From: Candidatus Micrarchaeota archaeon
GTDB lineage: Archaea > Micrarchaeota > Micrarchaeia > Burarchaeales > JAKAKT01
Length of the DNA stretch: 63,363 nt
NCBI GenBank assembly: GCA_021813385.1
Contig: JAKAKT010000009.1
Span: 1 to 63,363 of the forward strand
Reading direction: 5' to 3'
The notes beneath the pieces were generated by a model, which saw only the letters and a program-made list of their open reading frames with translations, had not been told where the DNA came from and searched no databases. A program made the position numbers and the translations under genes. Of the stretch, positions 4,240 through 43,219 are shown one piece after another (position 1 is the first letter of the stretch; every line of letters begins with the position of its first letter).

Positions 4240-5400
4240 TTATTCGGAGCGACTGAGGGGTAATCATGCTATCATACAAATTCAGGCTTTACCCTTCAAA
4301 AACTCAAGAAAAGAGTCTCAGTTCTCACCTATGGCAGTCAAAGGAATTGTGGAATGAGATGCTTGAATTTGTGAAAGAGTTCTACAAAAACTTCGAAAAA
4401 TTTCCGACGAAGAGCGCCCTTATGGAATTCGTCAAGCACAGTGGTCTTTATTCACAAACCGCGCAGGCGGTTGCAAACAGACTCTACGATTCGGTGTGGA
4501 AAAAGAGCGGCCCAAAGGCCGGCTTTCCGCGCTTCAAATCATTTGACAGGATGAAGAGTCTTTATTATCCACAGTTTGGTTTTTTCCTTGGGAAGAAACT
4601 CAAAGTCACTCCTTTCGGAGAGATTTCAATCAAGAAGCACCGCGAGATTAAAGGATTTGTCAGAACGCTGACCTTGAAAAGAGAAGCTTCTGGAAAGTGG
4701 TTTGCAATATTCTGTGTTCAAAAAGAGAAACACTTTCCAAAAGAAAATAGAGGAGAAAAAGTTGGAATTGACTTGGGATTGACGAACTTTGCGGCACTCT
4801 CAAACGGAATAATCATCAGAAACCCAAAGCACTTCAAAAAGCACGAAGAGCGCCTTGCCTCTCGTCAGAAGCGCTTTTCAAGATGTAAAAAAGGCAACCG
4901 AAACAGGGAGAAGGCGAAATTAAAAATCGCAGTTGAGTATGAAAGAATCTCAAATTGCAGGAGCGATTTCCTTCACAAGCTTTCGAATGGGCTTGTGAAC
5001 AGCTATTCTTTGATTGCGCTAGAAGCTCTCAGGAGTAAGGAAATGGCTGAGCATAGGTTTGGAAAATCAATTCACGATGCAGGTTGGAACATGTTTGCGA
5101 ACATGCTCGTCTACAAGGCGGAAGGAGCTGGTTGCGAGGTAATGTTCGTAGACCCAAGAAACACGACAAAAGGTTGCAGCTGCTGCGGCGCTGTTGTAGA
5201 AAAGAAGCTTTCAGACAGAACGCATGCATGCCCTTTCTGCGGTCTGACTATGGATAGGGACATAAACGCCGCAAGAAACATACTCAATCGAGCTACCGCA
5301 GGAACTGCGGGAAGTAACGCTTCTGGAGATGAGATAGCAATTTCATCGAGGAAAGAAGATGCCACCCGATTTATCGGGTGGTAGTTCACATAAGGTATAT
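4240..5400 (+). mobile_element. tnpB-only IS200/IS605-family element (ends not defined)
   Basis: Inserted between cca and a small hypothetical gene. Boundaries are approximate because no terminal repeats or target duplication could be identified by eye. Hairpins sit at 5296-5310 and 5362-5381 at the 3' end of tnpB. Confidence 0.35.
4266..5384 (+). CDS. tnpB: TnpB-like RNA-guided endonuclease (IS200/IS605 family OrfB, IS1341-like)
   Basis: 372 aa. Typical N-terminus MLSYKFRLYPSKTQ. RuvC-like residues in GIDLGL, ALEAL and DRDINAARNI. Zinc finger CSCCG..x..CPFCG between RuvC-II and RuvC-III. No tnpA adjacent. Confidence 0.85.
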   Translation: MLSYKFRLYPSKTQEKSLSSHLWQSKELWNEMLEFVKEFYKNFEKFPTKSALMEFVKHSGLYSQTAQAVANRLYDSVWKKSGPKAGFPRFKSFDRMKSLYYPQFGFFLGKKLKVTPFGEISIKKHREIKGFVRTLTLKREASGKWFAIFCVQKEKHFPKENRGEKVGIDLGLTNFAALSNGIIIRNPKHFKKHEERLASRQKRFSRCKKGNRNREKAKLKIAVEYERISNCRSDFLHKLSNGLVNSYSLIALEALRSKEMAEHRFGKSIHDAGWNMFANMLVYKAEGAGCEVMFVDPRNTTKGCSCCGAVVEKKLSDRTHACPFCGLTMDRDINAARNILNRATAGTAGSNASGDEIAISSRKEDATRFIGW

Positions 5401-6746: not shown

Positions 6747-6797
6747 ATTTGGTTATTCGAGGGACTGTTTATTAAATTTGGTTTCCAGAGTGACTGT

Positions 6798-7292
6798 ATG
6801 GCTGAGCTGAAGAACGGGAAAGTTGTTGTTTCGAAGGACTTCGAGCCCATTGCCGAGCAGGGCTTCGGGGAAAAAGAGGGTAAATTGTTAGTGCTTGCCC
6901 CATTCGAAGCCCTTTACTTGGTTGAGAAGAAGAAAATCGAAGTTAGCAAGAAAAACAAAAAAATCGATTTCGCTTCGCTTCTCTCGGAATTCGAGAAGAA
7001 AAATAAAGGAATCCGGGACTTGTTCCTTGTTTTTAGGGATTTGAGGGCTGCTGGCTATGTGGCGAGGGACGGCAAGACTGAAACTCCGTCTTTTCGGGTC
7101 TATGCGAGGGGCTCGAGGCCTGAGGAGGAGCCTGCGAGGTATCTGGTCTGGGTTGTTGAAAAGGGGAAAGCCACCCTAAAAGAGCTTCGCGGAATGCTCG
7201 AGCGGGCGCATGCTGTCAGGAAGCGGGCTGTTTTTGCAGTTGTCGAGAAGGGCACCATAACGTATTTTAAGATTGACACGACTAAATTCTGA
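6798..7292 (+). CDS. endA: tRNA-splicing endonuclease subunit (short, single-unit form)
   Basis: The track ORF starts at a GTG at 6654 that overlaps dtdA. The ATG at 6798 (MAELKNGKVVV) gives 164 aa with the EndA N-domain (FEALYLVEKKKIEV, FRDLRAAGYVARDG) and C-terminal catalytic domain (FRVYARG..., AHAVRKRAVFAVV). Confidence 0.8.
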   Translation: MAELKNGKVVVSKDFEPIAEQGFGEKEGKLLVLAPFEALYLVEKKKIEVSKKNKKIDFASLLSEFEKKNKGIRDLFLVFRDLRAAGYVARDGKTETPSFRVYARGSRPEEEPARYLVWVVEKGKATLKELRGMLERAHAVRKRAVFAVVEKGTITYFKIDTTKF

Positions 7293-7298
7293 AGCATT

Positions 7299-7370
7299 GC
7301 CCCAGTAACTCAGAGGTAGAGTGTTTGCATGGTAAGCAAAAAGCCGCGAGTTCGATTCTCGCCTGGGGCT
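7299..7370 (+). tRNA. tRNA-Thr (anticodon GGU), intron-less, CCA not encoded
   Basis: Cloverleaf drawn by hand: GCCCCAG-TA-ACTC-AGAGGTA-GAGT-G-TTTGC-ATGGTAA-GCAAA-AAGCC-GCGAG-TTCGATT-CTCGC-CTGGGGC-T. Confidence 0.9.
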
Positions 7371-7446
7371 ATCTGATTCTGTAGTGATGGAAACGTTTAT
7401 AATTCTTATTTCAGAAATACAATTCTGAAAACCGAAAGTGATAATT

Positions 7447-8073
7447 ATGTACCTCGAAAGGATAACTGGAACAGGCACGAAAATAGGTATTCTTAATGTG
7501 CTGGTCAATCATCCAGATAAGGCTTATGTTGAGAAGGACCTTGCGAAGGCTGCCGGAACGGCTTTGTCAGAAACGAACAGGCAGATGCCGGACCTCGTCG
7601 GGAGCGGGCTTGTGCGTCTTGAGAGAGTCGGGAAAACGAAGCTTTACTCACTGAATAGGAAGCACTTTCTCGTGCCTGCCTTAAAGAGGCTGTTTAAGGA
7701 CTTGAACGCCGTTTACTTGGATGCTTCGCGGAAGATAACTGAATTTGCGGTTTCCTCATCCAAAAGCGTGGAGGCAGTAATCCTTTTTGGAAGCGTCGCA
7801 AAACGAAAGGTAAAAAGCGACCTCGTGAAGGCTCCGAGCGACATCGATTTGGTGTTTGTCTTAAAAGACGAAAGTGAGAAGGAGAAACTGTTTGATTCCC
7901 TTGTTTCGTACATAAACAACGAGATAAGTTTGGCGTATGGGATGGTGTGTTATCCGGTTGTGATGACTAAAGCTGAGTATGTTGAAGCCCTTGAGAGGAA
8001 GGACGCGTTCATTCTGAACGTGCAATCCGAAGGAGTTGAGCTGCATGGAAGGAAGCCGAGAAGATTTGGTTAA
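7447..8073 (+). CDS. Minimal nucleotidyltransferase (MNT) with N-terminal winged-helix domain, antitoxin-like
   Basis: GS-x(n)-D-x-D motif (LFGSVAKRK...SDIDLVFVL) and an N-terminal wHTH (GKTKLYSLN). The track start is a GTG at 7438; the first ATG is 7447. A TATA-like TTTATAAT lies at about 7394. Confidence 0.75.
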   Translation: MYLERITGTGTKIGILNVLVNHPDKAYVEKDLAKAAGTALSETNRQMPDLVGSGLVRLERVGKTKLYSLNRKHFLVPALKRLFKDLNAVYLDASRKITEFAVSSSKSVEAVILFGSVAKRKVKSDLVKAPSDIDLVFVLKDESEKEKLFDSLVSYINNEISLAYGMVCYPVVMTKAEYVEALERKDAFILNVQSEGVELHGRKPRRFG

Positions 8074-8455
8074 GTGGGCTCTTGAGAAAACTGAGCAATA
8101 TTTGATGTCGGCCAAGAACAACCTTGAGGAGGACAGACCGTTCGTTGCTGCAGAGGAAGTTTTCAGGGCGATTGAGAACTCCCTTGAGGCGATGCTTTAC
8201 CAGCAGGGGATAAAGAGGATAGCTTATCCTGGCGGAGAGAAAGAGTTCACCGGAAGGCTGGCGCTGCAGTTCTTGGTCAGGGACAACCTGCTTGAGAAAA
8301 AGATAATCTCGAGAGCGGATTACGACAGGTACCTCGGCTATGCCACAAAGCTCCACCAGGCCGGCTACAGGTACGGCTCATTTGAAGAAAAAGTGTTGCA
8401 GGATGCGCTCGAATACGCGGAAGATTTGTACCATCGAGCTTTAGCGAGAAAGTAA
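8045..8455 (+). CDS. HEPN domain protein, toxin-like partner of the MNT
   Basis: About 136 aa, all-helical. Overlaps the MNT 3' end by 29 nt. AGGAG lies 9 nt upstream of ATG 8045. C-terminal R/H-containing segment (RADYDRYLGYATKLHQAGYRYG) sits where HEPN Rx4-6H motifs occur. Confidence 0.65.
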   Translation: MEGSREDLVKWALEKTEQYLMSAKNNLEEDRPFVAAEEVFRAIENSLEAMLYQQGIKRIAYPGGEKEFTGRLALQFLVRDNLLEKKIISRADYDRYLGYATKLHQAGYRYGSFEEKVLQDALEYAEDLYHRALARK

Positions 8456-8481
8456 CTCATCGAAACGAGCTATCTGACCAA

Positions 8482-8500
8482 CGAGCTAGATTCTCGCCTG
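8482..8500 (+). repeat. Partial direct copy of the tRNA-Thr T-arm/acceptor junction (att-like)
   Basis: CGAGCTAGATTCTCGCCTG matches tRNA-Thr 7347-7365 CGAGTTCGATTCTCGCCTG at 17 of 19 positions, with 12 contiguous. Same orientation, 1.1 kb downstream. Confidence 0.5.
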
Positions 8501-9343
8501 AAGCCAATTTAGAGCCTCTTCGTTTTTGATTTCTCGTTCTTCTTCCAAATAGTCAAAGAATTTGAATAATGAGTAGTAAACCTTGTCTATATCTGGAGCT
8601 CCAAGTATATACCTTTTTACGTATTTCTTGAAATCCGTCTTAAGCATTGTCTTTGTAACTTTGCTAAACGAATCGACTTCAAGTTCGGTTTCCAGGAAAA
8701 ACATGAGTAAATTTACGTTTTCCGTGTGCTTGTCCGCCGTTTTCTCACTGAGATTTTCTTCAGAAACTAGGTATTTGAAAAAGCCCACTAAGTAATCGCT
8801 CCATGAATCGCGAAATTTTCTATGGTTCTTCATTTTTATGAAAAGCGTGTTATCCTCAAATGGGATAATCGGCCCTGGGGCGAAATACTTGCCATTCCCT
8901 TTTGAGTTGAGTCTTGCTATGACTGCGGTTCCTGTTTTGATAGTTTCCAAATTTATGGTGTCAACGAAAAAAGTTTTTCCAGATGTGTCCACTAATTTAA
9001 GTTCGCTCTCAATTTGTGATTTGACGTTAAAAACTCCGAATATGCTTTCCCTCGCGCCAAACAAAACTTCTGCTTCTTCTTTCGTGAGGTTGCGGCCGTG
9101 GTGCTTGATGTACCAGCGAATCAGTGGCTCATTTTCTTTCATAAAACATGGGATGAGCCAGGCTAGAAAAAACCAATTGAACATGTGTTCGTCAAAAGGA
9201 ATTTTATTGAAAAACCAATGGAGGTCGTAAGAAAAAACACGGGTTGCGGTCTGTAAGTCAGTCTTGTCAAGAGCTTTGACTATTTTACCTACGGCACTAT
9301 TCCAGATTCTCGCATGTTCGCTATTATCGTTCTGCCAATCCAT
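8486..9343 (-). CDS. Hypothetical protein with a C-terminal tyrosine-recombinase core-binding (SAM-like) type domain and no catalytic domain
   Basis: 285 aa in visibly AT-richer DNA. The last ~100 aa (YLVGFFKYLVSEENLSEKTADKHTENVNLLMFFL...YYSLFKFFDYL) resemble the four-helix core-binding domain of integrases. The ORF stops inside the att-like repeat. Confidence 0.5.
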   Translation of the reverse strand: MDWQNDNSEHARIWNSAVGKIVKALDKTDLQTATRVFSYDLHWFFNKIPFDEHMFNWFFLAWLIPCFMKENEPLIRWYIKHHGRNLTKEEAEVLFGARESIFGVFNVKSQIESELKLVDTSGKTFFVDTINLETIKTGTAVIARLNSKGNGKYFAPGPIIPFEDNTLFIKMKNHRKFRDSWSDYLVGFFKYLVSEENLSEKTADKHTENVNLLMFFLETELEVDSFSKVTKTMLKTDFKKYVKRYILGAPDIDKVYYSLFKFFDYLEEEREIKNEEALNWLQARI

Positions 9344-9468
9344 AGACGTACCTCGAATATCTTAACCTACGCAGACTATTATAATCTTGTTGCTAGAACC
9401 ATGTCGAAAATAAGCGCTTCTTGGAAGCTTCAAGACGAGCGCCTAGGGCTCTGAACCCAGGGGGCACA

Positions 9469-9525
9469 TCCGATTTTTCTCCCAAGAGAAAAATGGACCA
9501 CAAGTGCCAGAGCACTTGTCGGTCC
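9469..9525 (+). repeat. Double-hairpin element, copy A
   Basis: TCCGATTTTT, then hairpin TTTTTCTC/CCAA/GAGAAAAA (9474-9493), then TGGAC. A 13-bp hairpin follows, GGACC-A-CAAGTGC/CAGA/GCACTTG-T[C]GGTCC (9495-9525). Collinear with copy B at 43517-43574. Confidence 0.6.
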
Positions 9526-9579
9526 CCCTAGGTTTCAAGCTCCTCCTGACCCCCTGACGACTTATCTTTGCTTGGTTCA

Positions 9580-9646
9580 ACCCCAGATTTTGCGCTGGGG
9601 CGCAAAAACCCTCACAAAGGTTCGTTCTGTTCGGTCGCCTGGGGCC
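9580..9646 (+). pseudogene. Decayed tRNA-Thr-like remnant (D-arm missing)
   Basis: Blocks collinear with tRNA-Thr 7299-7370: CCCCAG, TTTGC, GCAAAAA, GTTCG, TTCT, TCGCCTGGGGC. There is no D-arm, the anticodon loop is altered, and no valid cloverleaf can be drawn. Confidence 0.55.
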
Positions 9647-9746
9647 ATAAGCCAAGAGTCCTATTTCTCCAGACTTGCTTATTTTTAACGTATTCTGTAG
9701 TAAGCCTTAAAACCCTTAAGCATCGTTAATTTATCGGGGTCAGGGT

Positions 9747-17610: not shown

Positions 17611-20600
17611 CTATTTCAGCCGCTCCATCTCCCTTTCGACTTTTCTCAGTTCCTCATCGTATTTCTGGGAGAGCTGGTCAAATGAGCCACGGTCCATGCT
17701 GCGTTCCACGAAGTAGTCGCTCTGGACTCTCCTTTGCTTCTCGACTATCTCTTGCTTCTGTTCGAGCAATTTCCTTAGTTTCTCCCTCTTACGTACGAGC
17801 TGCAGGTAATAAGCGGAAACGGACAAGGCAACGAGGAGTATGGCGATTATCGGAATCCAGTAGAGCTTGATGTAATACCAGGGGGAGTAGCCTTGGACCT
17901 TCAATGGAACTTGCGCAATTCCGTAGTTTTCATATGGGTCTCTCGCAAAAATAATCATTGTGTTTGCGCCCTGAAGACCTGGGTCGAGCTCGAGGGACGA
18001 GCCATAAACGCCACGTTCAACCTGCCGGGCGGTTATGCTCCTGTCCTTTAGCCTTACCAGTAGAACAATGTTGTCTGCTGGCTTTTCCTCTGAGTAAGAG
18101 GCCAGGACATTGATGGGGAGAGTCTCGCCTATCGAATAGTCCTGCTTCGCAGGCTCCGTTATCACCAATTTTATAGGGACGTCTGTTATCGCTACGACTG
18201 TCGAGGCAGCGCCTCCGTGGAGAACGCCGTTTTCAGTCTTATACACCCGGCTCTGCAATTCCCATATCCCGCTTGGGTCATCCAGGGATATCTTGTACGT
18301 CGAGCTGTAGACCCCGTCCCCGACCTCCTCAAGTGGGAATGCCTTGTGCTTCGGGCCATAAGCCTTGGCCTGGGCACCTGTGATTGGGTTCCCGGCATCT
18401 GTGACCTTGATGGTAATCGGGACATCCTGCCCTTTAAGGTAGGCCCCCGGCACCGGGCTTAAGTATTCAACTGAGAGGAATTTTTCCGGGACCGGCTCTT
18501 CAACTGCTATCAGCTTCGAAACCATTCTGGTATTGTTATCATCATCAATCACGGTGATGGTTGCAATCCAATTCCCGGCTGAATCAAGGAAGGATGTCCG
18601 GTATGCGAAATCAAAATCCCCCTTGGTCCTCTTGGATTGCTTGCTTATATCCGAATCGTACGCCGAGAGGTCGAGCAAAACTTCGTGCTCCGTGTCATCC
18701 GACCCTCCTGACACATTCCCCGATATGAACACGGTATCGCCAAGCTCAAGCGTTGGTGTGTCAAGGACCATATTTAGGGCAAGGTTGTTGGTTATGAGTA
18801 TTACTGAAGAACGTTTCCCGTTGGAATCCCCTACCCGGGCATCAAAAGAAATTGCCTGGGGCCCGTAGGGAACCCAGCTGCTTATATCGACGTAAGCCCC
18901 GTAAAGCCCATCTCCGGGTGCCCCGTCCCCGTGCATGCCATCATCGTATAGGATGACTTTTCCGAAGAAGCCTGAAGCGCTTACGATGGCGTTCGCGGCT
19001 GGGACGAACTCGGCAAAGACCTTTACTGCCAGGTGCATCCTGTCGCCACGCAAGAAATCTTGGCCGAAGCTTGGCGAGTATATCCTGAGCGAGAGGAATT
19101 CTGGCGGGCAATCGGTTGAGCATGTGAAGAAATTCTCCGGCTTCTCGCAGGCCCCGTTTCCGCAGCAATTTGGAATCGTCGTGCAGGAGCAGCCATCCGG
19201 AGTGCACTTGAACTGGGTGCAATCGCCTGCGCATTTCCCTGAGCATGACCCGCAGTCGGATGGGCAGTTGCATTTGTTCTCCTGCGCGTCGCAGAAGCCG
19301 TTACCGCAGGAGAGGAGGCAGTCTGTGGGACAATTCGTGTTTGACTCGCCGGCGGATGGCTCGCAGATGGAGTTCCCGCAACAGTCTGGCTTTAGGGACT
19401 CGATGCAATCTCCAAGAACGCAGGCGTATTGCTGGCAGGATTTCCCAGGCACGTCGCCCTTGCATGTGGGAGAGCAAGTGGGACTGCAGTCTGAATCATT
19501 AAGGGAAGTGCAGCCGGCCGGGCAGCATCCGTCTTTGCTCAAGCACGAGGTTATCGGGGCATGGGCGCAAATGGCCGAGCAGTTCGAGCCTGAGCATGAA
19601 TCGATTGTGCAGGTGTCGCCGTCGCTGCAGTCTTTCTGTGAAGTGCAGACGCTCTTGCACGAGCCGCCGCAACAGAGGCCACCGCCGGGGCAGGCGTTAC
19701 CGCCGATTGCCAAACCCAATGGGTCGCAGTCAGGGTCAGAGCCATAGCATGATGGACCGGGGCAAGTGCCATCGCAAATTCCACAAGTGCCGCAGTAACC
19801 GATAGTGAATCGCGCAGTAGTGGGATTGTAGCCGAAGAGCGAAGCTTGTACCTCGTATTGGCCAGTTTCGTTGGGAGTGAAGACGTATCTCCCGGCAGCG
19901 TCCGTGAAGCCGGTTTCGACGATTTGCCATAAAACACCTTGGCGGAGTATTTTGATGGAAACGCCTGGGACCGGGCCAGAATCGCTGCTTATTGTTATTG
20001 TCGAAGTCTGGTTCACGCAATTTCCGGATATTGAGGCAGACAGCGAAGGGGTTGGATGCGGGCAATTTGGCGGGCAGCCTGCAGGGGCAGCCTGGATATT
20101 AACGCTCGCGTTAGTTGCTGTCCCGTTTGCAAACCCGTCGAACGGGGTTACCTGGCAAGTCCAGGTCTCGCCGTTAGTGGTGTTCGCTCCTGCCAACAAG
20201 AATGTGGTGCTATTCGTAAAGGTTGTCGCGACTTGCGTGACCCCATTCCACCAGATGTATGTGAAGTTTATGCTGTCGCCATCTGCGTCAGTTGCGAGGG
20301 CCGAGCAAGTGACGTCGCTCCCCTGGGCTGCCGGAGAGGGCGAGATGGAGACGGCAGTTGAGGGCGGCGTGTTGATGATTGTCACAGAAGTCGAGATGTT
20401 CTCGAGCGAATATTTCGAATCCCAGCCTGTGTCAGAACTGTCCTGCGAGCAATTAATCGTATCTCCCCTGTTCCCTGCCCCTGCCTGGGAGAGGTCGAGG
20501 GTCTGCGAGATCTGCCCGGGAATAACTGTCCCATTCAGGAACCATCCCCAAACCCGCGAGCCCTCGGAGTCGTTGTCGGCGTCCGAGAAGGAGCCGTTGT

Positions 20601-23600
20601 TGCAAAGCAAGACCGAATCAGTGTAAGGCGAAGTGTCGTTTATCGACGGGGCTGTTACCCACGGGGCAGTGTTGTTTACAGTAGCTGCCACTGAACCATT
20701 TATCCGGTTTGAGGAATACTCGCCGTCATAAGCCGATACCTCGCAAATCCAAGTGTCGCTCTTTCGCAGGGCCCCTGGGGGGAAGCTGTTCGGGTAGGAA
20801 ATTGACGCATTCGGGACATTATCCAGCGAGACAACAGAATAAGCGGTGCTGTTCCTGTAGAATGTAAAGTTTACTTGCAGGATTGTCGAATTTTCTGCGT
20901 CGGTTATGTTGGCGGAGCAGTTTAGGGAGTCGTTAAGGTAAATCGCTGAACCGATGGGCAGGCACGCAGTTCCCTTGCAAAGGGTGGCGTTGTTTGGGAT
21001 AGGGGCGCTCGAGGTTGTGAGCGTCACCGTGGTGCTGTTCTGCCTCGTGCTGTTCTTCGGGTCATAGCCTGAATCCTCGGACATGTGCTCGCAGATTATC
21101 TGGTCAGTAGCCTGGGCCCCAATGGCGAGAAGGCTTAAGGATTGGCTCGTCTGCCCTCCAAGGACCGACCCATTCCAAAACCAGCGCCAATACCCCATTC
21201 CAGGTTGGTCACCGTCTGCGTCGGAGAATGTTCCGTTGTCGCAGCTGATGGTGCTCGTGTTTATCGGGGAGGTGTTGTTGATGCTCGGCGCACCTATTGA
21301 GGGTGCGGTATTGTTCACAGTGACAGTTGATGAGTTGAGCGCGCTTCCGAATTGCAGGCCATCGTAAGGCCTTGCCTCGCATCCCCAGGTGTCGCTCTTA
21401 TTGACGGCGGCGGCTGGAATGGGCGAAGCAGCATACGCAAATGTAGCATTCGGCACCGCATACCTGATGCTGTCGTATCCAGAAGAATAGCTCCCATTCA
21501 CGAACCATTTGAAGTAGACGTCTATGCTTGAATTGAAGTCATCCGTGACGTTGGCTGAGCAATTCAGCGAGCTTCCCCTGGATATTGGGACCGGGGAGCA
21601 TGTGTCATTTGCGCATATTTGCGTGTTCGAGACCGACGGGGCAATATCGACTGTGACCCAGAGAGGTCCGCTCGAGCCCGTGTTATTCACTGTGTCGTTG
21701 CAGTAAACTGTGAACGAGTGGTTTGTGGAATAGGAAAGCGGGGCCATAGTGGCATACCAAACCGTTGAATTGAGCTGGCTCATCGCGTAGAAACCGGAAC
21801 TGTTCTGAACCAAGCACGAAATTGCCGCTTCGCTTATGCTCACATTGAGGAATACGGAATTCGAGACCTGGTTCGAGTTGTTGCTCGGGGTCGGGGGAAC
21901 GAACGAGACTGTTGGAGTAATTGTGTCAATCCGGACAGTCCTTGGGCCGATGTTCCCGCTGTTGTTCGCCGAATCGTTCACATGCGCAGTGTAAGAGCAA
22001 ATTCCATCGCCCAAGCTCGTCATGTTCCTGTACCAAACAGTCGAGTTCAGTTGGCTCATCGAGTAGAATGTGCCGTTCCAATCTAGAAGAGCGGATATTA
22101 TTCGCTCGTTAGCGCTGACATTGATGTATGCCCAGTTGGTCGATAGGTTGGCATTGTCGCTCGGAGTCGGATAAACGAAAGTTGGAATCGGGTTCACCGT
22201 ATCAACTAAAACCCACCTGGTTTCGCTGTAGCCAAGATTGTTGAGGGAATCGTTGCCTCTTGCCTGGAATGAATAGTTTCCGTCGGCTAGGTTGCTCATG
22301 TTCAGGTACCATTCGATGGAGCTAGTGTTCTGCATGGAGTAATCGGTCCCATTCCAGTTGAGGGTTGCGTTGTCAAGAGCCTTGTCGGATGTCATGTTCA
22401 CGTAGCTCCAGTTGTAATTAATGAACTCGTCATTGTTGGTCGGGAAGACGAAAGTGAGCATCGGGGCGCTGGTGTCAACTGTGACGTTCTGGGTGAGTGA
22501 GGTGCCGTTGTTGCCCAGGGTATCATTTGCCGAAACATTGTATACGTAGGTTCCGTTCGCCAAGCCAGTTATGTTGAAGTACCAGTTTGTCGGTGATGAG
22601 TTGAGCAAGTAATAACTGGTCCCATTCCAGTATACTGATGCGTTATCCACACGCTCGTTAGTTGTCACATTTACAAAGACCCAGTCCCTCGAGGTTGTGG
22701 AATCCGGCCCAGGAGTCATCGACACGAAAGTTATGATGGGGCCGATTGTATCTATCAGGACCCATCTGGTTTCAGTCGTGTTCGTATTCGAGGCAAAATC
22801 GCTAGCATTCGCGAAGAAAGAATAATTGCCATCGCCTAAGCCCGTTCTGTTGAGATACCAGTTGATTCCGCTTCCCCCCATCGGATAGTCCGTCCCGTTC
22901 CAATTCAAGGTTGCATTGGCAAGATTTTCATTCGAAGACAGGTTTACATAACTCCAGGCATAATTCACAGATTCGTTGTTGTGCGTGGGGGAAACCAGGG
23001 TGAGGGCTGGCTGGGTCGTGTCTATCGTCAAGTTCTGAGTAGAGGACGTTCCGGTGTTGTTCGCGCTGTCGTTCGCTTGGACGTAATAGTCATAAGTCCC
23101 TTCGGAAAGGCTCGTCATGTTTCTATACCAACTGGTTGGATTCAGCTGAGAGAACTGATACCAAGTTCCGTTCCAGTTAATCAGGACCGATACCGCATAT
23201 TCGCTCGTCGTTATGTTTACATATGCCCAGTTTTGTGACAAGTTCGAGTTGTTGGGCGGGGTCGGGGTGACGAAGGTGATTACGGGTGAGACTGTGTCGA
23301 TTGTGAGGTTCCTTGTCTCTGAAATCCCCGTGTTGTTTATCGTGTCGTTGGCTGAGACGTTGTAGGTGTAGGTCCCGTTGCCTAGTACTGTCATGTTCCT
23401 GAACCAGTTTGTGGATGAGGATTGGGTCAATGAGTAGAAGGTACCGTTCCAGTTGATTACTGCTGAGATTATTGGCTCATTTGAGGTTATGTTGATGTAG
23501 GCCCAGTTCTGGGAGAGGTTTGAGTCGTTTGGAGGCGTTGGGGTGACGAATGTGATTGCTGGGGCTGAGGTGTCGATTGTGACATTCATCGTTCCTGTGC

Positions 23601-26600
23601 TGCCGGTGTTGTTCACTGAATCGTTAACGTAGACTCGGTAAGCGTAAGAGCCGTTAGACAGCCCAGTCATGTTGCGGTACCAATTTGTCGAAGAGCCCTG
23701 GGTCATTGCGTAATAAGTGCCGTTCCAATCAACTATGGCTGAAACTGTCTCTTCATTTGTTGTGACATTCACATAAACCCAGGATTGGGAGAGGTTTGTG
23801 TTGTTTGCTGGGGTCAGGGGTACGAATGTGACGACTGGGGCAGTATTGTCGATTCTGATTGTGACATATTCGGTTGCATTCGTGTTTGAATAAAGGTCGG
23901 TTGCGTTGATAGTCACATTGTAGTAGCCATCAGACAGGGCAGTTGTAATGAATGTTGCGTTGAAGCTTGTTGCAGTTGTGTTGCTCATTTGGATCCAAGG
24001 AGTTACGTTTCCTGTTGTGTTTGAGAGCCAGTAGTAGACTTTGGAGGCGTCGGGATTAGCATCAGTAACCGTCGCGTTAATCAGAGTTGGGCCACTCACG
24101 TTCTGGTTCGCTGAAGGGGCGGTTATTGTGACGCTGGGGGGCAAATTATCGCCCGCATAAAGAGTCAGGTTAACTGTTGATGACGAGGTTATGTTCATTG
24201 AAGTTGAGTTTATTGCATAATTAGCCAGGCTTGCGTTTATCGTGTGATTAGTGTAGCTCACGTTAGTGCTGCCGTTCATCACCATTTCAGTCACGATGAC
24301 GTAATTAGTTAGGCCTCCCGGATTAGTCAAGTTGTCCGTCATATTTGAAAAGCCAAGGATGTCCGAAATGTTTACGATTGCGTTCTGGAGCGGGGAGCCG
24401 GCTGAGTTCGTGACATTTACGCGGGCGTACCATTGGATTGTGAGATTGTTGATGTCAGTTGTGCCTATAACGACATTCGAGATGTTGAATGTCATGTTCA
24501 GGAATATGTTGTCGTAAACACTCGGGAGGCCGAAATCAGGGCCAACCGCGTAAAAGTTAGTGGCCGAACCATTCGTGATTGTTGAGTTTGCGAAGATTGC
24601 CCGGGTAACTGCACCGAAGTTTGCATCGAGATAAACGGAAGTCGCAGCAGTCGTGATGGTGTTGTTAGTAAGAGCCGTGTCAGTAACAGAGCGTGCAAGA
24701 TACATGCCGAAAGCGCTGCCCCCAGTGGTGGTTATCGTGTTCGAATACACTGAAGTGTTGTACATGTTCCTGTAAACGTATGCGCCATAGCCGGATGAGC
24801 TTAGGATTGTGTTCAGGTAAGCGGAGTTGTTGCTGCCTGTAGTGGAAAAAGTTATGCCCGTTCCTCCTCCGGATGCGTTTATGTTGTTCGAATAGAGCGA
24901 GTTGTTGTAAATCACTGTCACGGCGAATATTCCGCCTCCTGATGAGTTTGCTGTAAGGTTGTTAGAGTAGACTGAAGAGGAATTTGTCCTTGTGAGATAG
25001 ATTGCTGACGCGGTGGTTCCATTTGTTACGACTTTATTCGAGTAGATGTTGTGGAAGCCGCCAATGCTCGCGTAAATCCCGTAGCTCGAGGAGCCATAGG
25101 TGTAGATTGTGTTGTTTTCAACTGTGTTGTTGTCGGCCCCGGTTTGTATCGCGATGGCATAGCTGCTGCTTGTGCTGACATTCCCCTCTGAGAAAATGCA
25201 GTTCTTTATGGTGACATTATCGTAGCCTGTATTGTTTACCCCATATCTTCCATTTACCGAGCCAGTGTCGTATGTGACAATGTGCCCGTTGCAGTCGAGG
25301 AATACATTGTGGGCGGTTATGTTGAAGCATGTTCCAGATGAAGTCACATCGCTGACGAGGGTGGTATTTGCACTTACTTGGCTGCAAATTGTTCCAGGCA
25401 TTTGGTATAGCGTGAGGTTGGTTGTAGAGGTCGAGGTAATGTTTGCTGACGTGGTGTTGATGAGATAGCCCGTAAGGGTCGCGTTAATTGTCTGATTGTT
25501 CAAAGCGAAGTTCCCGGAACTTGAATAGTTTGTGTCGTTCACCACAACGAACCCGGTCAACCCGTTCGAGTTCGTCAGGTTAACGACCATCGCAGGCATC
25601 CCGTTGATGTCCGATATGTTGACAAGCGCGTTCTGCAAAGCAGTACCTGACGAACTGGTAACATTCACGCGCATAAACCACTGGACGAGGAAATCATCTG
25701 TGCCTGCCCAGGAAACGTTCGAGTAGTTCGCAGTCGTGTTCAGGAAAATGTTGTTCACGGAATTAGTCATGGACCGGATAACGTCTGTTGTAACCGAGGA
25801 GTGATGGATTATTGAGTCCGTGAAGTTTGTGTTGTTCGAGTTCTGCATGTATATCCCATAGATTGCGCGGTCCGAGGTGATGTTGTAGAGCCTGTTTGAG
25901 CGAGAGTTCAGCGAATAAATTCCATAACTAGTGCTGTTGATGGAGATATTCTGGAGTAGGTTCCAGTTAGTACTCGAAAACCGCAACCCATAGGTCGCGT
26001 TCTGAATTTTACCATTCTGGAAAGTATTGTTTTCCGGCGGGGGGTCGAGATCTGATTGAAGAGCGTAAAGGGCAGAAGTCGTCCCATTGCCCCTTGTTAT
26101 ATTGAAGTTTGTGACGTTGGTGCCAGAGGAAAGGGATTCGAGGTATATGCCCGTGCCATTGTAGTCATCAACAGAAAGACCCGTTATATTCACCGGGCAG
26201 TTTATCCGGAAGCCTATGTTGCTCACGTTTACGTCAATATTCTGGAAAGACAAGTTTGCAGCGCATGGGTAGACCGTATGAATTCCATATCCGTTTGACA
26301 TGTTCTTTAAGCTCACCTTGGACACTGAAGAGTTTGAGACGTATGTGAAGTAGAGTCCGTAGCCGCGGTAGACATACGTGTCGCCCCCTTGCAGGTAAGC
26401 GCGCCGTCCCGAGCCAAGAAACACCGACGTCTCATCCAGGTAAGCGCCATAGTGGCGGATGTCTTGCTCCAGGGCATTGCTGGAAATCGCCCCGATGCTC
26501 TCGCCTATTGCTTCGGACAGCGTGTAGTGGCGTGACTCATGGTCGTTTCCTGCCGGGTTGACGATGGTGGTGACCAAGGTTCCTGAATGGTTCCTCCCGC

Positions 26601-29600
26601 TGTAGTTGCTTATCAAGAGGCTATCCACTGTATTCGCGTAGATGCCGTAGGCGAAGCCGCCTTTGTCTGCGAATTGCCCGGTTGGCACGGAAGTCACTAT
26701 GTTCCAGTCTGTGTGGTTCGTAATGTTGACGAGACTGCAGCTTATCAGGTTGATTCCGATTGCATTGCTATAGATGGAGCTGCTGCCGTACCCGCAGTCA
26801 TGAATCGTGTTGTTCAGGAAAGAGAGGTTCTGGGAGTTTTGTGCCCATATGCTATTGATGAACTGGGTGATTATGCAGTTCTTTATTGTGATGTTCGATC
26901 TCCCGGACATGTAAACGGCATAAGCGTTGAGGGACGTGGTACCAGTTATTGTGTGGCCGCTGCAGTCTAAGAAAATGTTGTCTGCGGCCATCGTGAAGCA
27001 GGTAGAGCCGGTCTGCGCAGTCACATCGCTGCTTAATGTGGTGTTGTGGTAAACGCTCTTGCAGTCAGTTGTTGGGATAGTCAGATTCACTTGCGTCATT
27101 CCGGTAATGTTGTAAACAGTGAGATTGGATGACCCGTCTGCCCATGAGGCGTAGAACGTGTGGTTGTTGTAATTGAATGACTGGACTGAGTTCTGGGTCT
27201 CTTCGGTAATGGAGTAATAGGCAGTCGGATTGGGGGTCGATGAACCGGAATAGATTGTGCGGCCGTTTGTTTCGTTGATTTGGAACGAGCCGCCAGCTCC
27301 CAACTGGTCTCCGAATTTATCTGTGAAATTGATCCGGACAGGCCAGGCGAAGCTCAGGTTCCCGGACAAAAGTAAAATATTGTTCCTGTTGAACGACGTG
27401 CAGTTGAAGATTATGTCATCGGTCGACACGTCGGTGTTCACTGCATCGTACGAAGTAGCGGATGCGAAGGAGGAAGTGTTGATTGTGTTCCAGTTCGAGG
27501 AAGATGCAAACTCGAGGTTGTCCACATTCCCGATAAAACTGTTGTTAAAGACATTATTTAGACTTGATGACTCGATTGTAAGCCCTGAGCCGCTCGAGTT
27601 GAGCGTGTTGTTCGAAAGAAGTGAGCTATTGGTTGAGTTAAAGTAAACGGAACGCTGGTAATCGCTTACAATGCAGTTCTTTATCGTTATGTTTTTCCTG
27701 CCCTCGGCGTATATCCCATAGCCCGCATCAGCGGAGTCGTTCCCGGTTATCCTATGGCCGGCGCAGTCAAGAGCTACGTTGTCGGCCGAGAAAGTGACAC
27801 AGGTTCCGTTCGAGGCGAGGTTTGACAGGAGTGTCGTGTTCACGCTTACCTGAAGGCATTCCGAAAGGTAAAGGCTGGCATTATATGTCTGCGATGATGT
27901 GACGTTCAGGCTTGATGAGTTGAATGCGCCTGCCTTTGAAACGTTGATTGTGTAATTGTTGAACGTGAAATTGTTGGTTGAGTTCATGTAAGTGATGTTG
28001 ATTAGGGTGAAGTTGGTAAGGCCGCTCGAATTTGTGACGCTCTGGACCATTATCTGTTTTCCATAAGCATCTGTGATATTCACTAGTGCGCCGCTGACCG
28101 GGCCTCCGAGATAGTAGGTTGCATTTACCCGCAGGTAATGCTGGAGGGTCAGGTTGTTTGTCCCGCTTCCCCAGGCGAATGTTGATGGCCCAGAGTAGCC
28201 ATATTGTGGTGGACCCCGGATTATGTTGTTCAGGGAAGTCTGGTTCGAAGTTATTTCCCTGACATAAGTACTCGCAAATGACGAGTTCTCGATAACATTC
28301 GAAGAGCTCGCGTTGAGATATATTGAATAGTTCTGGTAATCGAAAAACTCGTTGATGAACTGGTTCGAGTTCGAGGACTCGAGGATGACGTCGTAATTGT
28401 TATAAAAGAATGTCAGGTCAGAGAAGTTGTTTCCAGACGAGGAGTTCAGGTAGGCGCCGATTTGGTTAAGGTAAACTTGGCATCCACTGGTATTCAATGT
28501 GTTGTTGTGGGAATCCGAGAGGTAGGCCCCATAGAAGTTTCTCCAAGGGCAGCCGAACCCCCGGATGCTGCTCCTGTTCGTTCCTGAGAGCATTATGCCG
28601 GCGGAATAATTTATCGGGTAGCAGTCCTTTATGGTTATGTTCGTCCTCCCGGGCGCATAAATGGCGTAGGTGCCCAAAGTATGGTTCCCGACTATCCCCT
28701 TGCTTCCGCAGTCGAGCGTTATGTTGTCTGCCCCGAAAGTGAAGCAGGTGTCGTTGTAGTATATGTCCACTCCCGTGTAAAGGCTCTGCGTCAATACTCC
28801 GCAATCGTACTGGGTGAATGTGATTGTCTTGGTGCTCGTCACGTTGTTGGTTTTTGTCTGGAACTGGGAGAATGATACGTTTATCATGTGGTTGTTGAAC
28901 GAGAAGTTCTGCAGCACCGAGCCAGATTTGTTCATAATCATCTCGTTGGCTATGGCCCAGTTGGTGTAACCGTTCGAGCCCGTTAAGTTGTCAATCATCA
29001 ACTGCTTTCCGTAGGCATCCGAGATGTTAACTATTGCCCCTTGTATCGGGGAAACGTTGGTCGCATAAACGCGCAAGTACCACTGGACGGTCAGGTTGCA
29101 GGGCGAGCACGTCCCGAACCCGACCTTGCTTGTATTGAAAGTGGAATTGAGAATTGTGTTGTTCTGGGAGCTCCCGTCTAGATAGATGTCGCTAGTTGAA
29201 GTCTGGGAGATTGTTGAGTTCGACATGTTGTAATCGGTCGTGCTCGCGCCTGTGAGATAAACCCCGTAGCCGTTCCCATAGGCGAGCCCGGTGCTCCCGG
29301 GGTTGCCACGAGTCGAGTTCGTGAGAGTAGATGTCTTGATAACCCCGTACCTGCCCGCGGCGGTGACGACGTAGCTCGTTCCCCCAATCCCGGCAGTACT
29401 CGAACATGCCGTTGGATCTCCCCCGTTCCCAGCGGTGAAGTACGAGAGGGTCGCGTTCTCAATGGTTGCGTTTGCATTTGTTGCGCTTACATTGAATCCG
29501 AAGGAATCTCCCCCTGCCCCTCCTGTTCCGCTACCAATGTCACCGCAGTCCCCAGCAGTCCCTCCTGACCCACCAGTTACGTTGTTTATCGAACCGGTGA

Positions 29601-32600
29601 ATATGTTGTTCGCCGAGCGCAGATAGACTCCGCCCCCGGCTCCGCCGTTGCCTCCGTTGGCGTTGGTGTTGACCGAGGGAGTCGTCCCTCCGTTCCCCCC
29701 TGTTCCGCCAAAGACCTGGGAGATGCTCATCAGGAGCATCGAATTGTTCGCTGAGCCGCTGTCAGTTATGTAGATTGCGTAGGTTAATCCTCCGGCGCTC
29801 CCGTTCCCTCCGTATTTGAGTCCGGTCGCATTGCCGCCGTCCCCTCCGTTCCCGCCCGTCAGTCTTGTGAGCGTGTCGCTTGTGAATGTGGTGTTCAAGG
29901 AGTTGCTAATCAGATAAATCCCGTAAATACTCCCACCCACTCCGCCGTTGCAACCATTGCTGCTCGCTCCAGACCCGTTCCCGCCGGTCCCGCCTTTCCC
30001 GCCCGAAAGGTTTGAAATCGCATTGCTCGCAATCGAATTGTTTTTCGAGTTCGTGAGGCTGATTCCGTACAGCGAGTACCCGTCTCCCCCATTAGTGCAG
30101 GAAGCGCCATTGTTCCCACCGGTTCCAGCGACTCCGCTCGTGTTATAAATCGTGTTGCTGGTTATGAAACTGTTATTCGTGCCGGTGAAGAGGATGGCGG
30201 TCGTGTAGTTGCTTATGAGGCAGTTCTTTACTGTTATGTTATTCCTACCGCTCGCGAGAACCCCGTAGGCATTGGCCTGGGTGCCGGTTATCGTGTAGCC
30301 AGCGCAGTCCAAGGTGATGTTGTCCGCCCCGATTGTCATGCAGGTACTCGTAGTCGAAGCGATGCTGTTTGTGAGCGTCGTGTCTGAGTATATTGTAGCG
30401 CAACCGGAGTATAAGGAAAAGTTCAGCGTTAATGTGCCCGTGATATTGATATTTGTCGTATTGAAGAGAGACGAACTGCTCACGTTGATTGTGTGGTTGT
30501 TGAATGTGAAGTTTTGGCTCGGCCCCATATACATCTCAGTGACTGTTGCCCAGTTCGTGAGGCCATCGGAGCCGGTTAGGTTGTTCGCAATTACTTGCTT
30601 CCCATAGATATCTGAGATGTTCACGAGCGCGTTTTGGACGGGCGAGCCTGACGGGCCGGTAACGTTTACCCTCACATACCACTGGAGAGTTAGGTTGCTG
30701 GTCGCATCCAGGGTCACTTGTGATTTGTTGAAAGTCATGTTGAGGAATATGATGTTGTAGGCATTGTAAGAAACAAGGTTAAGCGCCGAGCCGTTTGTTA
30801 TCGTTGAGTTCTCGAAGCTGTTGTTGCGGATATACCCCGTGCTTCCATCGAAATACAGCGAAGCTGCCGCTGTTGTTATGGTGTTGTTCCAGAACCTGTT
30901 GTCGTATATGATCTGTTTCAGATGTATCCCATAAGCACTGCTTCCGGTTGTAGTTATGGAATTTGAATAAACCAAGCTGTTTGAAACTCCAATCCAGAGA
31001 TAAAGGCCGTCACTGCTTGAACTGTTTGTAGTGATGTTGTTGAAGGAAATCGCCGTGTTGTTGACTCCGCCGCTAGCTAAGTAAACACCAATGCTTGAAG
31101 TGCCGTTCGTGGAGATTCTGTTCGAGGTTATGTTATTGTTGGGTGAGGTCGAAGCAACATAAACGCCTTCGCTGCCTGATCCATAAGTGGTGATTGTGTT
31201 GTTTATCACGCTGTTATTGTTCGCATTGGTGAAGAAGACCCCGTGCTTGCTGCTTGTGCTTGTGTTTCCATCGATTAGGACGCAGTTTTGAACAGTCGTG
31301 CGGTTGTAGCCGGTATTGTTGACGCCGTACCTGGCATTGTTCGGGCCTGTCCCGTAGGTTATTGAAAATCCGTTGCAGTCAAGCGTGATATCATTCGCCA
31401 ATATCGTGAAGCAGGTATCGTTTGAGTTTACGTTGCTGTTCAATGTAGTGTTCGAGGTTAGGTTTCCGCAGATTGAGGGGGTTAGGGATACTTCGGCGTA
31501 TGAAGACACGTTGTAGGTCGAGTCCGAGCAGGTGAAGTTCGCGCCCCAGGTGTCATACCAGCTCAAGTTGCCCGATGAGATATTCGACGGATTCATGCTA
31601 ACATTCGAGCTGATTGTATTATTGCCCTGGAAATAGGGGGAAATTGTAAGATTATCGAACTCGTAGAAGAGCGCCTGCGCGTTGCTTGCGTCATCGAGAA
31701 GGAAGCCGATTGTGAACATGCTGTTCGCAATGTTTTGGTTCATGAACGATGCGTTCGTTGCGCTCCAGGCGTTCCAGGTGGTGGCGGGGATGTAGTTGGT
31801 CTTGTTGCTCAGGGAATTTGTCGTATTGCCGGCGCCACAGTTGGTGGTCTGGGAGAGGTTGTGGCAAGGAGTGACGTTGCCTGCCCAAATGTACGCAGTT
31901 ACATTGAGCGCCTGGGAGGTGTGATATCCTCTCCACCACCAGGAAATGTTGTAGGTCCCGGAGGAAAGCGGGAGTTTGAATGCCCGGTAAGCCCACAAGC
32001 TCCCTTGCCCGGTGTTGTCAGTGCGGGCGTGGAAATCCGGGGAAGGAACCCCGTCGCTTGAGTTCTGAGAGACAATCCATCCGCTTCCTGGGTCCGATGC
32101 GGTATACCTGTCCTCGGAGATCCCATACCAGCCATTCGTGCAGTTCGTGCAGAACGAGTTGCTCGGCGAGCAGGATGACCAGGAAGCGCATGTCCAGTTG
32201 CCATCAAACAGGTTTCGGAGGTTCCATAGGTAAGAAAGGTTCAGCGTCGGATTGTCCGGGTCGTTGCAGGTTACGTTCAGTTTGAGGGTGTCTGAAGTTA
32301 TTGGGGAAGTTGGGGTGATTCGCGTCTCTACGACTGTCGGAGTGAGGTTGAGGTTGTGGGTGATTTCCAGGTACGGGCCGTTCGCCAATCCGCACACATC
32401 GAAACCGCGTTCGTAGTCAGGGTCAAGGATGGATCCAATATCGAGGGAATTTTTATAAGCGGCACCGACTACTGGGTAGTAGTCTGGATGGTTTATCCTG
32501 ATTGTGAGGTTCTTCTCGCCTGCCCCGTATGCCGCCTTGGTGATGTTCGTGACGTTGATGCACATGTAGCCGCCTGGCGCGTCATAAAAACTGTAGGCAG

Positions 32601-41860: not shown

Positions 41861-43219
41861 CTATTTCTTTGTGTGGATGAGCATCCCCTCAGGCCTCCTG
41901 AAGAGATTCCCGCTCCTGACACCAATCAGCATCGCCGTACCCTTGCTCTCGGCAAGGTCAACAAGCCTCTGGGTGATTATTCCATCGAAGACGACCGCGT
42001 GAATCCCGGGGGATTCCCCGAGCGTCTTGATGAGGTCCCGGACCGGAATCTCGTTCACCTGCTCGTTGTTTGGGCCGTAGAGCCTTGCCCTGAGGGTATT
42101 CTCGAGCTCGTCAAGGCTCTTCAGCAGCCCTTCAGGTGCCTGGGCAGCTGATGCAGAAGGGGAGGCTGTCTCAACGGGCGCGCTTGCCTGCTGGCCTTGT
42201 GCCTCAGAACGCTCGAACATCGGCTGTATCGATTCGGCTGGGGATTCCACAGGTTCCTTCCCCTCGCTAATGTCCTCTTCCCTCCTGGATTCAAAAGGCC
42301 TGCGCGTCCTCGCGAACCTCGACCTGTCTTCTTGCGCCTGCCTCGGCCTGTCGTCGGCGAGCTGCTCAAGCGGGAGCGCTGCCTGCCTTGGCTTCCCTCC
42401 GTTTATCTGCTCGAAAGGAACACGGCTTCTTATCGCCTTTATTATCTCCTTCCTTGAGAGTTCCTCCACTTCCCTTCCTGGAGGCGCCCTAGCTACGAAA
42501 TCGATTTCAGTCTGCTGGGAGAGCTCCTTGAGGATTATGTCCCCGCCCCTGTCCCCATCGAGGAAGACAGTCACTTCTTTCTCCCTGCATAGGCCGATGA
42601 CGGTCTTGGGAACATTCGCCCCTCCGATAGCAACCGCATTGTTTATGTCGTTCTTGAGCAGGTTTAGCACATCCGCCCTGCCTTCGACTATCACAATCGC
42701 ATCGGAAGTCCTTATGCCCGGACCAGCAGGCAGCTTCTCGGGGCCATAGCTCTCTATTTCAGCAATCTTGACCTCTTGCCTCACGAGTTCCGAAATCTCC
42801 TTGCTTTCAGGAATCTCGTTGGTGAGAAGAATCTTTAAGAGTCTCTTCGCCCTGTCGATGACTGCTTTCCTCTTCACGTTCCTCGTGTCCTCTATTTTCT
42901 CGACGTTTATCTTCGCGTCGCACGGCCCGACCCTGTCGACCGCCTCGAGCGCAGCTGCGAGAATGCTCGTCTCGACCATGTCGAGGCTCGAGGGAAGGAG
43001 AATCCTCCCCACGCTCTTGCCCCCCTTGCCCTGAAGCTCGACCTCGATTCTCCCGATTCTCCCGTTCTTCTGGAGCTCGCGCAAATCAAGCTCGTCCCCA
43101 AGAAGCCCTTCGGTCTGGCCGAATATCGCGCCAACAACGTCGGGCTTTTCTACGAGCCCGCCTATCTCTAGGTTCGCGTAAACCAAATATTTCACTGTGT
43201 CAATGTATGTCTTTCCCAT
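41861..43219 (-). CDS. dnaG: Archaeal DnaG primase (Toprim)
   Basis: The canonical archaeal DnaG N-terminus MGKTYIDTVKYLVYANLEIGGLVEKPDVVGAIFGQTEGLL starts at ATG 43219, preceded by GGTGA (43225-43229). Toprim motifs IVIVEGRADV and FLDGDRGGD. The ORF stays open upstream to 43600. Confidence 0.85.
   Translation of the reverse strand: MGKTYIDTVKYLVYANLEIGGLVEKPDVVGAIFGQTEGLLGDELDLRELQKNGRIGRIEVELQGKGGKSVGRILLPSSLDMVETSILAAALEAVDRVGPCDAKINVEKIEDTRNVKRKAVIDRAKRLLKILLTNEIPESKEISELVRQEVKIAEIESYGPEKLPAGPGIRTSDAIVIVEGRADVLNLLKNDINNAVAIGGANVPKTVIGLCREKEVTVFLDGDRGGDIILKELSQQTEIDFVARAPPGREVEELSRKEIIKAIRSRVPFEQINGGKPRQAALPLEQLADDRPRQAQEDRSRFARTRRPFESRREEDISEGKEPVESPAESIQPMFERSEAQGQQASAPVETASPSASAAQAPEGLLKSLDELENTLRARLYGPNNEQVNEIPVRDLIKTLGESPGIHAVVFDGIITQRLVDLAESKGTAMLIGVRSGNLFRRPEGMLIHTKK

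Follow-up and report, generated by a model that had tools for sequence, protein, structure and literature searches.

Two double-hairpin modules in a Micrarchaeota contig belong to a small, previously undescribed element family

REP sequences and BIMEs are palindromes of 20–40 nt that carry a GTAG or CGTC tag; they are strictly extragenic, exceed 100 copies per genome and are associated with a RAYT gene. We know of no RAYT described in Archaea. For PATEs derived from IS200/IS605 elements, insertion takes place 3′ of a fixed target of four or five nucleotides and causes no duplication. BHB introns are defined by two 3-nt bulges around a 4-bp helix at the exon–intron borders and lie on the same strand as the gene. 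Micrarchaeota have genomes of ~1 Mb and depend on a host, so any selfish DNA that they tolerate is informative.

The archaeal cases in a 2024 review of prokaryotic MITEs come from Sulfolobus, Halobacterium, Haloquadratum, Desulfurococcus and a few others, and none is from DPANN (PMC10969869). RPEs are palindromic repeats of ~100–150 bp that form sequence families with a conserved peptide, occur both between genes and in frame inside them, and have no known mobiliser (PMC10969869). IS200/IS605 is the commonest archaeal IS family and has been reported in >65% of Micrarchaeota genomes (PMC13343696).

Here we describe a double-hairpin module that occurs twice in a stretch of 63,363 nt from a Candidatus Micrarchaeota archaeon (contig JAKAKT010000009.1 of GCA_021813385.1). 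We refer to this whole stretch as the window; contig DAHXPG010000006.1 of GCA_027364455.1 matches it at 100% identity, and the nearest named relatives of the window's proteins belong to Candidatus Micrarchaeota/Micrarchaeia. The two copies are real members of a small, previously undescribed family of Micrarchaeota elements, and literature searches returned no such element described in Micrarchaeota or DPANN. A preliminary description of the window had located both copies, and when we re-read the window their coordinates and quoted sequences proved exact. The following features were defined from the sequence, a pattern search, covariance models and folds (the two copies) or from the minimum-free-energy fold (the outer repeat):

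9469–9525, plus strand: copy A of the double-hairpin module, consisting of TCCG, hairpin 1 ATTTTTCTC-CCAA-GAGAAAAAT, G, hairpin 2 GACC-ACAAGTGC-CAGA-GCACTTGT-C-GGTC, and C
43517–43574, minus strand: copy B of the double-hairpin module, consisting of TCCG, hairpin 1 ATTTTTGCC-CGA-GGCAAAAAT, G, hairpin 2 GAC-GTCATTTTC-CCGA-GAAAATGAC-TGT-GTC, and C
9455–9533, plus strand: imperfect outer inverted repeat around copy A, pairing ACCCAGGGGG (9455–9464) with CCCCCTAGGT (9524–9533)

The pattern TCCGATTTTT-N-AAAAATGGAC gave two matches in the window and none in 100 dinucleotide-preserving shuffles. Copy A scored 51.3 bits with covariance model R1, built from three members, and 64.2 bits with model R2, built from 24 aligned matches; the corresponding scores of copy B were 31.8 and 54.7 bits. 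Neither model found a further member within the 63-kb window. As RNA, each copy folds into two adjacent hairpins (z = −5.7 for copy A and −4.8 for copy B), and 0 of 200 shuffles were as stable. Folding of single-stranded DNA gave z-scores from −6.7 to −9.2 for both strands of both copies.

These folds change the reading of the sequence blocks that the two copies share. They had been taken for unpaired junctions and are in fact stem bases: ATTTTT/AAAAAT makes up the lower half of hairpin 1. The GTCC-type block is likewise paired, as (G)GAC(C) with G(G)TC(C) closes hairpin 2. The bulge at the foot of hairpin 2 measures 1 nt (C/T) in copy A and 3 nt (TGT) in copy B.

The module was found well beyond the window. 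When one genome of each prokaryotic species was scanned for the 20 conserved bases, 46 loci were returned; among them, hairpin 2 and GGTC follow the pattern only in loci from Micrarchaeota or from unclassified ‘archaeon’ MAGs, and the bacterial loci lack the second perfect hairpin and GGTC. Model R2 separates the members (45–78 bits) from the remaining pattern matches (≤27 bits). A scan of JGI metagenomes added two members and no more. In total, the family comprises 16 modules in six Micrarchaeota genomes and two JGI metagenome contigs; MAG DeMMO2_7 accounts for six of them, spread over three contigs, and the window, binchicken_co33_516 and E14 bin.186 for two each. The pattern scans and the covariance-model search, the latter suggested in the preliminary description, produced 14 further members, all with the same invariant bases and with different stems.

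Other searches were negative. Two pattern scans of viral contigs returned no real member; the 39 viral matches to a looser pattern were rejected as chance matches, the best of them scoring 23 bits and lacking hairpin 1 pairing. About 75 kb of DNA from close relatives contained zero modules in the R2 scan, so that the module density in the sampled DNA is low (2 in 63 kb of the window, 0 in ~75 kb of relatives). Scanning generically for pairs of adjacent hairpins gave too much noise to add members. At the Rfam gathering threshold, which was applied to the whole window and so covered the copy B region, tRNA-Thr alone matched; the surroundings of copy A gave no match at E up to 10, and eight member-bearing loci gave none at E up to 1.

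The consensus of the family reads TCCGAT-[stem/loop]-ATGGACC-A[stem/loop]T-(C/T)-GGTC(C), with a unit length of ~54–61 nt. Fixed bases occur only at the foot and the junction (TCCGAT, ATGGACC and YGGTC). The stem sequence is free across members provided that pairing is kept, to the point that stems are wholly different between copies, and the loop sequences also vary. A second loop of the form C-N-G-A, noted earlier for the two window copies, indeed holds for copy A (CAGA) and copy B (CCGA) but not for the family, in which TTCG, CAAA, CTTG and TGAG are found elsewhere.

Because MAFFT alone failed on the stems, the alignment used for covariation was fitted to the structure by a covariance model; it also includes reverse-strand rows. 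With pair counts that are consequently biased towards the structure, standard pairs filled 96.8% of the cells, as against 71% in shuffles and 34–49% with slid partners. Double-sided changes were observed at 20 of the 24 pairs, and 0 of 500 shuffles reached any of these measures. Together with the 16 members, these values bear out the initial proposal of selection on structure as opposed to a recent duplication. Copies within one genome have unrelated stems, which makes a picture unlike that of a recent burst.

The module has a pseudo-dyad architecture, CCG[hairpin 1]GG-A-CC[hairpin 2]YGG. In other words, it consists of two ~27-nt imperfect palindromes set back to back in inverted orientation, with one bulged base near each foot. 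Since the fixed bases form this dyad, the reverse strands score almost equally with R1 and R2. Neither strand was singled out by wobble pairs or by UNCG, GNRA or CUUG loops in a hand count on the alignment, and in each typical copy both strands contain a T5 run. When lengths are taken relative to a 54-nt insertion (locus L026, below), 9 of the 13 measured units (8 of the 12 independent ones), intergenic copies included, are divisible by three (p ~0.02, a binomial estimate).

The genomic position of copy B is the most informative in the window. It lies in a small Toprim gene, in sense orientation, and the relevant features are as follows:

43490–43596, minus strand: the full inserted block of 107 nt with copy B (DNA alignment with loci L047, L048 and L049, protein alignment and fold)
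43591–43574, minus strand: hairpin H0, AAATTTC/GAAATTT
43513–43494, minus strand: hairpin H3, TTGGAATT/AATTCCAA
43597–43728, minus strand: N-terminal part of the Toprim gene upstream of the insert, 44 codons to ...LERC
43253–43489, minus strand: C-terminal part of the Toprim gene, MIKRIIPVNG...RFGE, in another frame than the N-terminal part
43585–43591, minus strand: heptamer A_AAU_UUC, in phase with the upstream frame (three-frame translation)

That copy B lies inside an interrupted Toprim gene had been stated from the window alone, and the comparison with relatives confirms it. Uninterrupted homologs exist (in protein alignment, 84% identity for P0001 and ~60% for P0002 and P0003), and the interruption is an exact extra block of 107 nt that is missing from L047 and L048, whose flanking DNA is ~90–94% identical, and from L049. 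The block is made up of four hairpins, H0, the two-hairpin module and H3, that is, of the module with one extra perfect hairpin on each side. Its borders read ...GAAAGGTGC (ending in GGTGC) and ATGATAAAAAGG, which gives the site GGTGC^ATGATAAA; a direct repeat at this site matches at 6 of 8 positions only (AGGACAAA/ATGATAAA).

The length of 107 nt is not divisible by three, and a stop within the block ends the upstream Toprim frame, leaving a predicted truncated product of 67 residues. Five independent assemblies and a strain of 97.6% identity all carry the block unchanged, which rules out an assembly error as the source of the frame break. The gene bears a second lesion, a 2-nt deletion between 43252 and 43251 (minus strand) relative to L047, by which the stop codon is lost and the C-terminal half is joined in frame to dnaG. 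This deletion accounts for the 555-residue gene-caller product (41861–43600, minus strand), which starts inside the inserted block. In comparison with a relative, dN/dS is 0.33 for the Toprim gene and 0.068 for the adjoining dnaG, a difference of about five-fold. In three-frame translation, a −1 shift at A_AAU_UUC enters a frame that is open across the entire insert. We regard this putative recoding signal as a lead and not as a finding, and the 2-nt deletion together with the two dN/dS values makes decay or remodelling the simpler reading.

A second filled/empty pair was resolved in an ABC ATPase gene (L026), so the insertion polymorphism between relatives that the preliminary description proposed to look for was observed twice, with 107 nt for copy B and 54 nt for L026. 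The L026 module lies antisense within the gene, in frame and free of stops, as the insert CCGAT...ATTGGT. The protein gains 18 residues in comparison with its 92%-identical ortholog P0127/L063 from another Micrarchaeota MAG. All other aligned ABC ATPase homologs are also without them, and MJ0796, the sequence of a solved structure, shows a 15-residue gap at the insert. Alignment of the filled and empty DNA revealed no target duplication at this site. Two features of the locus are given here:

L026, resolved insertion site: CTTCTTCC^CGCGCGG
L026, predicted ABC ATPase peptide that bears on in-frame translation: DQSAASRGWSIFRFREKSE

The resolved sites, of which there are only two, have no target motif in common, and their inserts differ in size (54 vs 107 nt). 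Copies within ORFs number three, the third, L041b, being a diverged member in the sense orientation whose frame agrees with that of the surrounding HD-domain ORF. In addition, the modules of L006 and L045 are found in 5′ gene regions, where the frame agrees with possible extensions of the N terminus. The translated module segments share only the residues that the fixed bases force.

Copy A lies in a different setting, among remnants of elements integrated at tRNA-Thr, which agrees with the decayed islet next to this tRNA gene noted in the preliminary description. Partial direct repeats of the 3′ end of this tRNA gene (7299–7370) are present at 8482–8500, 9304–9316 and 9635–9648, and copy A is located between the last two of them. 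The stretch from 7299 to 9650 also contains a nucleotidyltransferase/HEPN pair (7438–8455) and an ORF (8486–9343, minus strand) with an N-terminal SAM-like integrase domain alone, and looks like stacked remnants of tRNA-integrated elements. Synteny around the TerC-like gene is lost in relatives, so no empty site was obtained for copy A. On the other side of tRNA-Thr, a tRNA-splicing endonuclease gene (6777–7292, plus strand; Pfam tRNA_int_endo and tRNA_int_endo_N) stops 6 nt short of it.

Intergenic copies were often found just past gene ends. L042c, for example, lies 16 nt 3′ of the gene for FttA, an aCPSF1-type termination factor; L041a is flanked by two convergent genes, and L050 follows a gene at a distance of ~90 nt. 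Module orientation relative to the neighbouring genes is mixed, and several copies per genome occur in unrelated contexts. Outer helices comparable to that of copy A also flank L051, L042c and three composites (L003, L042 and L009), two of which are copies of the same composite:

L003 7165–7407, plus strand, and L042 2097–2339, minus strand: 243-nt composite of MAG DeMMO2_7, in unrelated flanks

This composite holds an inverted pair of modules, with ends of ~13 nt (GGGACCGACTYGT), and is bounded by an 11-nt inverted repeat, CAACAACTGCG/CGCAGTTGTTG. The L003 and L042 versions differ at ~17 positions, among which there are three compensatory double changes. L009 is a related single-module composite that has three hairpins in place of hairpin 2; the motif GGAGGAGCGCACC is common to both kinds. 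The 5′/3′ closing helix and the adjacent hairpins of these composites suggested SRP RNA or RNase P, an identity that was rejected because they have neither an Rfam match nor the conserved helix-8 motif.

A separate array of four consecutive perfect hairpins with stems of 7–9 bp was noticed at L051 5459–5559 (plus strand), within a 76-residue ORF. It lies ~1.1 kb from the L051 module and has no sequence relation to it. The multi-hairpin composites and this array together suggest that these genomes more widely contain short hairpins in series.

How does the module compare with the described systems? Its likeness to RPEs is a likeness of habit: both are short palindromic repeats of reduced genomes that occur between and inside genes, in-frame copies add a peptide without destroying the gene (the ABC ATPase of L026 and the HD protein of L041), and neither has a known mobilising enzyme. 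The module is, however, only ~54–60 nt long, has an archaeal host and bears no sequence relation to RPEs. Because its stems are unrelated between copies, there is no conserved peptide, unlike in RPEs. The resemblance is one of behaviour, not of membership.

The architecture, by contrast, recalls REP, BIME and REPIN sequences. The ~27-nt halves, CCG-A-stem-loop-T-GG, are imperfect palindromes in which the foot bases are fixed and one base is bulged, and the two are inverted as a doublet, as in BIMEs and REPINs. As with REPs, many copies lie past gene ends, the structure but not the stem sequence is kept, and no duplication is seen at the L026 site. The module differs in having no GTAG or CGTC tag (its fixed bases are CCGA...TGG), in its low copy number in the sampled DNA in place of hundreds, and in that some copies are intragenic. 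Since the halves of a doublet have different stems, one long REPIN hairpin is impossible. In the subset of ORFs neighbouring the modules that was run against Pfam, no Y1 transposase was matched.

With archaeal MITEs and PATEs the module shares a small size, a non-coding, multi-copy and non-autonomous nature, polymorphism between relatives and hairpin ends. The unit and its compound forms (107 and 243 nt) stay under ~600 bp and have no ORF of their own, and the same window contains a TnpB gene of the IS200/IS605 family. In contrast to MITEs, there are no long terminal inverted repeats but just CCGAT/ATYGG (~13 nt in the L003/L042 inverted pair), target duplication is absent at L026 and amounts to the 6/8 direct repeat at copy B, and the copies within one genome are dissimilar in sequence. 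The DNA examined contained no IS with ends matching the module. Similarity to the ends of the TnpB element of the window (4266–5384) was also considered and rejected, as R1 and R2 gave no match there; the two have only the 5-nt CCGAT/ATCGG of the TnpB 3′ hairpin in common. Of the MITE/PATE-type reading put forward in the preliminary description, a mobile DNA element is favoured (filled/empty sites, orientations and dyad), whereas an IS200/IS605-derived PATE origin is left without a model match. In summary of this comparison, the element fails some defining features of each of the MITE, REP, PATE and RPE classes yet works like them.

We put at roughly 0.6 the probability that the module is a small non-autonomous palindromic mobile DNA element specific to Micrarchaeota. 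It is placed in either orientation, between and inside genes, without evident target duplication at the clean site (L026). A length of 3n without a stop codon leaves the host gene open and adds ~18 residues to its product, as with RPEs. The element also takes the form of an inverted pair, or carries extra hairpins, in larger composites. A structure-specific enzyme acting in trans may recognise its hairpins in single-stranded DNA; recognition of this kind would account for the conservation of structure and foot bases alongside a free stem sequence. The lack of duplication at the clean site and the dependence on hairpins would point to a single-strand enzyme of the IS200/IS605–RAYT kind. We infer that an HUH/Y1 transposase of this kind is the most plausible candidate mobiliser, to which the reported presence of IS200/IS605 in most Micrarchaeota genomes and the TnpB gene of the window may lend support. 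The neighbours examined contained no transposase gene linked to any module, and our searches found no transposase, RAYT, TnpA, module-flanked gene or parent IS with matching ends that could serve as the mobiliser. Copy B is a 107-nt compound insertion, module plus two hairpins, that broke the frame of a Toprim gene now lesioned twice, and copy A rests in the debris of elements integrated at tRNA-Thr.

A more far-reaching version, which we consider doubtful, sees in the module the substrate of hairpin-specific single-stranded DNA transposition in DPANN, and hence either the first archaeal REP/RAYT-like system or a new enzyme. The ~54-nt unit would then be defined by its fold plus ~15 fixed bases, would insert without duplication and would be biased to lengths of 3n so as to survive in genes; copy B would perhaps be decoded by a −1 shift, giving a Toprim–DnaG fusion.

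The main competitor is a functional structured RNA, which we judge unlikely; it is conceivable for the intergenic copies but does not account for the intragenic ones. The module could be a protein-binding motif, a transcript-end motif acting in termination or stability, or part of a non-coding RNA, with the intragenic copies being secondary. The strong covariation and the compensatory changes between the two paralogous composites fit this, and compensatory change between paralogous copies would also agree with a structure that has a function at the host level; outer closing helices surround several copies, and L042c, L041a and L050 lie just downstream of gene ends. On the opposite strand hairpin 2 is followed by GGTCCATTTTT, and a terminator-like scan flags both window copies. 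Hairpin followed by a T5 run, however, occurs on the opposite strand only; a bacterial-type intrinsic terminator was rejected, since the T run precedes the GC stem and pairs with the A run after it, which is the reverse order. A host RNA also sits poorly with the mixed orientation relative to neighbours, with copies lying inside coding sequence both ways round, and with a dyad consensus in which, by hand count, wobble pairs and tetraloops pick out neither strand. Rfam was silent even at permissive thresholds (copy A and eight member loci), no common promoter is evident upstream, and presence or absence between close relatives is unexpected for a required host RNA. It is the two filled/empty sites, the placement in either orientation to genes and the dyad on both strands that favour a DNA element over an RNA family. 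As part of the mobile-element reading, intergenic copies past gene ends, with T5 on both strands, may secondarily affect transcript ends.

Removal or bypass of the intragenic copies, either as BHB introns cut by the endonuclease encoded at 6777–7292 or, for copy B, by a −1 frameshift at A_AAU_UUC, appears very unlikely to us. Several points speak for it: the module is a short structured insert in an archaeal gene with a splicing endonuclease gene nearby, copy B is in sense orientation, removal of its block would restore the Toprim frame, and both Toprim halves are intact with dN/dS at 0.33. The frame break is the same across independent assemblies, and the slippery heptamer is in phase, with an open frame through the insert and hairpins downstream. 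Upon inspection, though, no arrangement of 3-nt bulge, 4-bp helix and 3-nt bulge could be drawn at the borders of copy B or L026, and BHB introns were rejected; the folds at the insertion borders are continuous helices with a 1-nt bulge (widened to 3 nt on a single side in copy B). In L026 the module is antisense and in frame, so that no removal is needed, and the same element is found between genes in both orientations. The second Toprim lesion better fits decay or remodelling, as does a dN/dS about five times that of dnaG, and an in-phase heptamer in an A/T-rich hairpin is expected by chance in an estimated 5% of cases. That the copies resemble each other by chance, or as a decayed relic of one duplication, is scarcely credible any longer. 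The window has just two copies with unrelated flanks, which by itself might have suggested it; the shuffles without a match, the genome scan, the further members with the same invariant bases on different stems and the covariation refute it.

If the module is such a mobile element, it may provide an archaeal parallel to Rickettsia, in that palindromic elements could colonise coding genes in frame in DPANN as well. A unit that keeps its fold and ~15 fixed bases while its stem bases are free should lend itself well to a search for the protein behind its recognition. The covariance model is useful in annotation, as it flags inserts that would otherwise be called split genes (Toprim) or unexplained loop insertions (ABC ATPase), and presence or absence of the module could serve as a strain marker.

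Two further features of the window are worth recording. The TnpB gene (4266–5384, plus strand) encodes OrfB_IS605, Cas12f1-like TNB and HTH_OrfB_IS605 domains according to Pfam, and no TnpA was found near it. At its 3′ end lies a perfect hairpin (5362–5381), CCACCCGAT-TT-ATCGGGTGG, whose arms carry CCGAT/ATCGG; the same bases bound the module, which may be a coincidence. Giant surface proteins are typical of DPANN archaea, and the window contains a single ORF of 5587 residues (17611–34374, minus strand) with an N-terminal signal-like segment.
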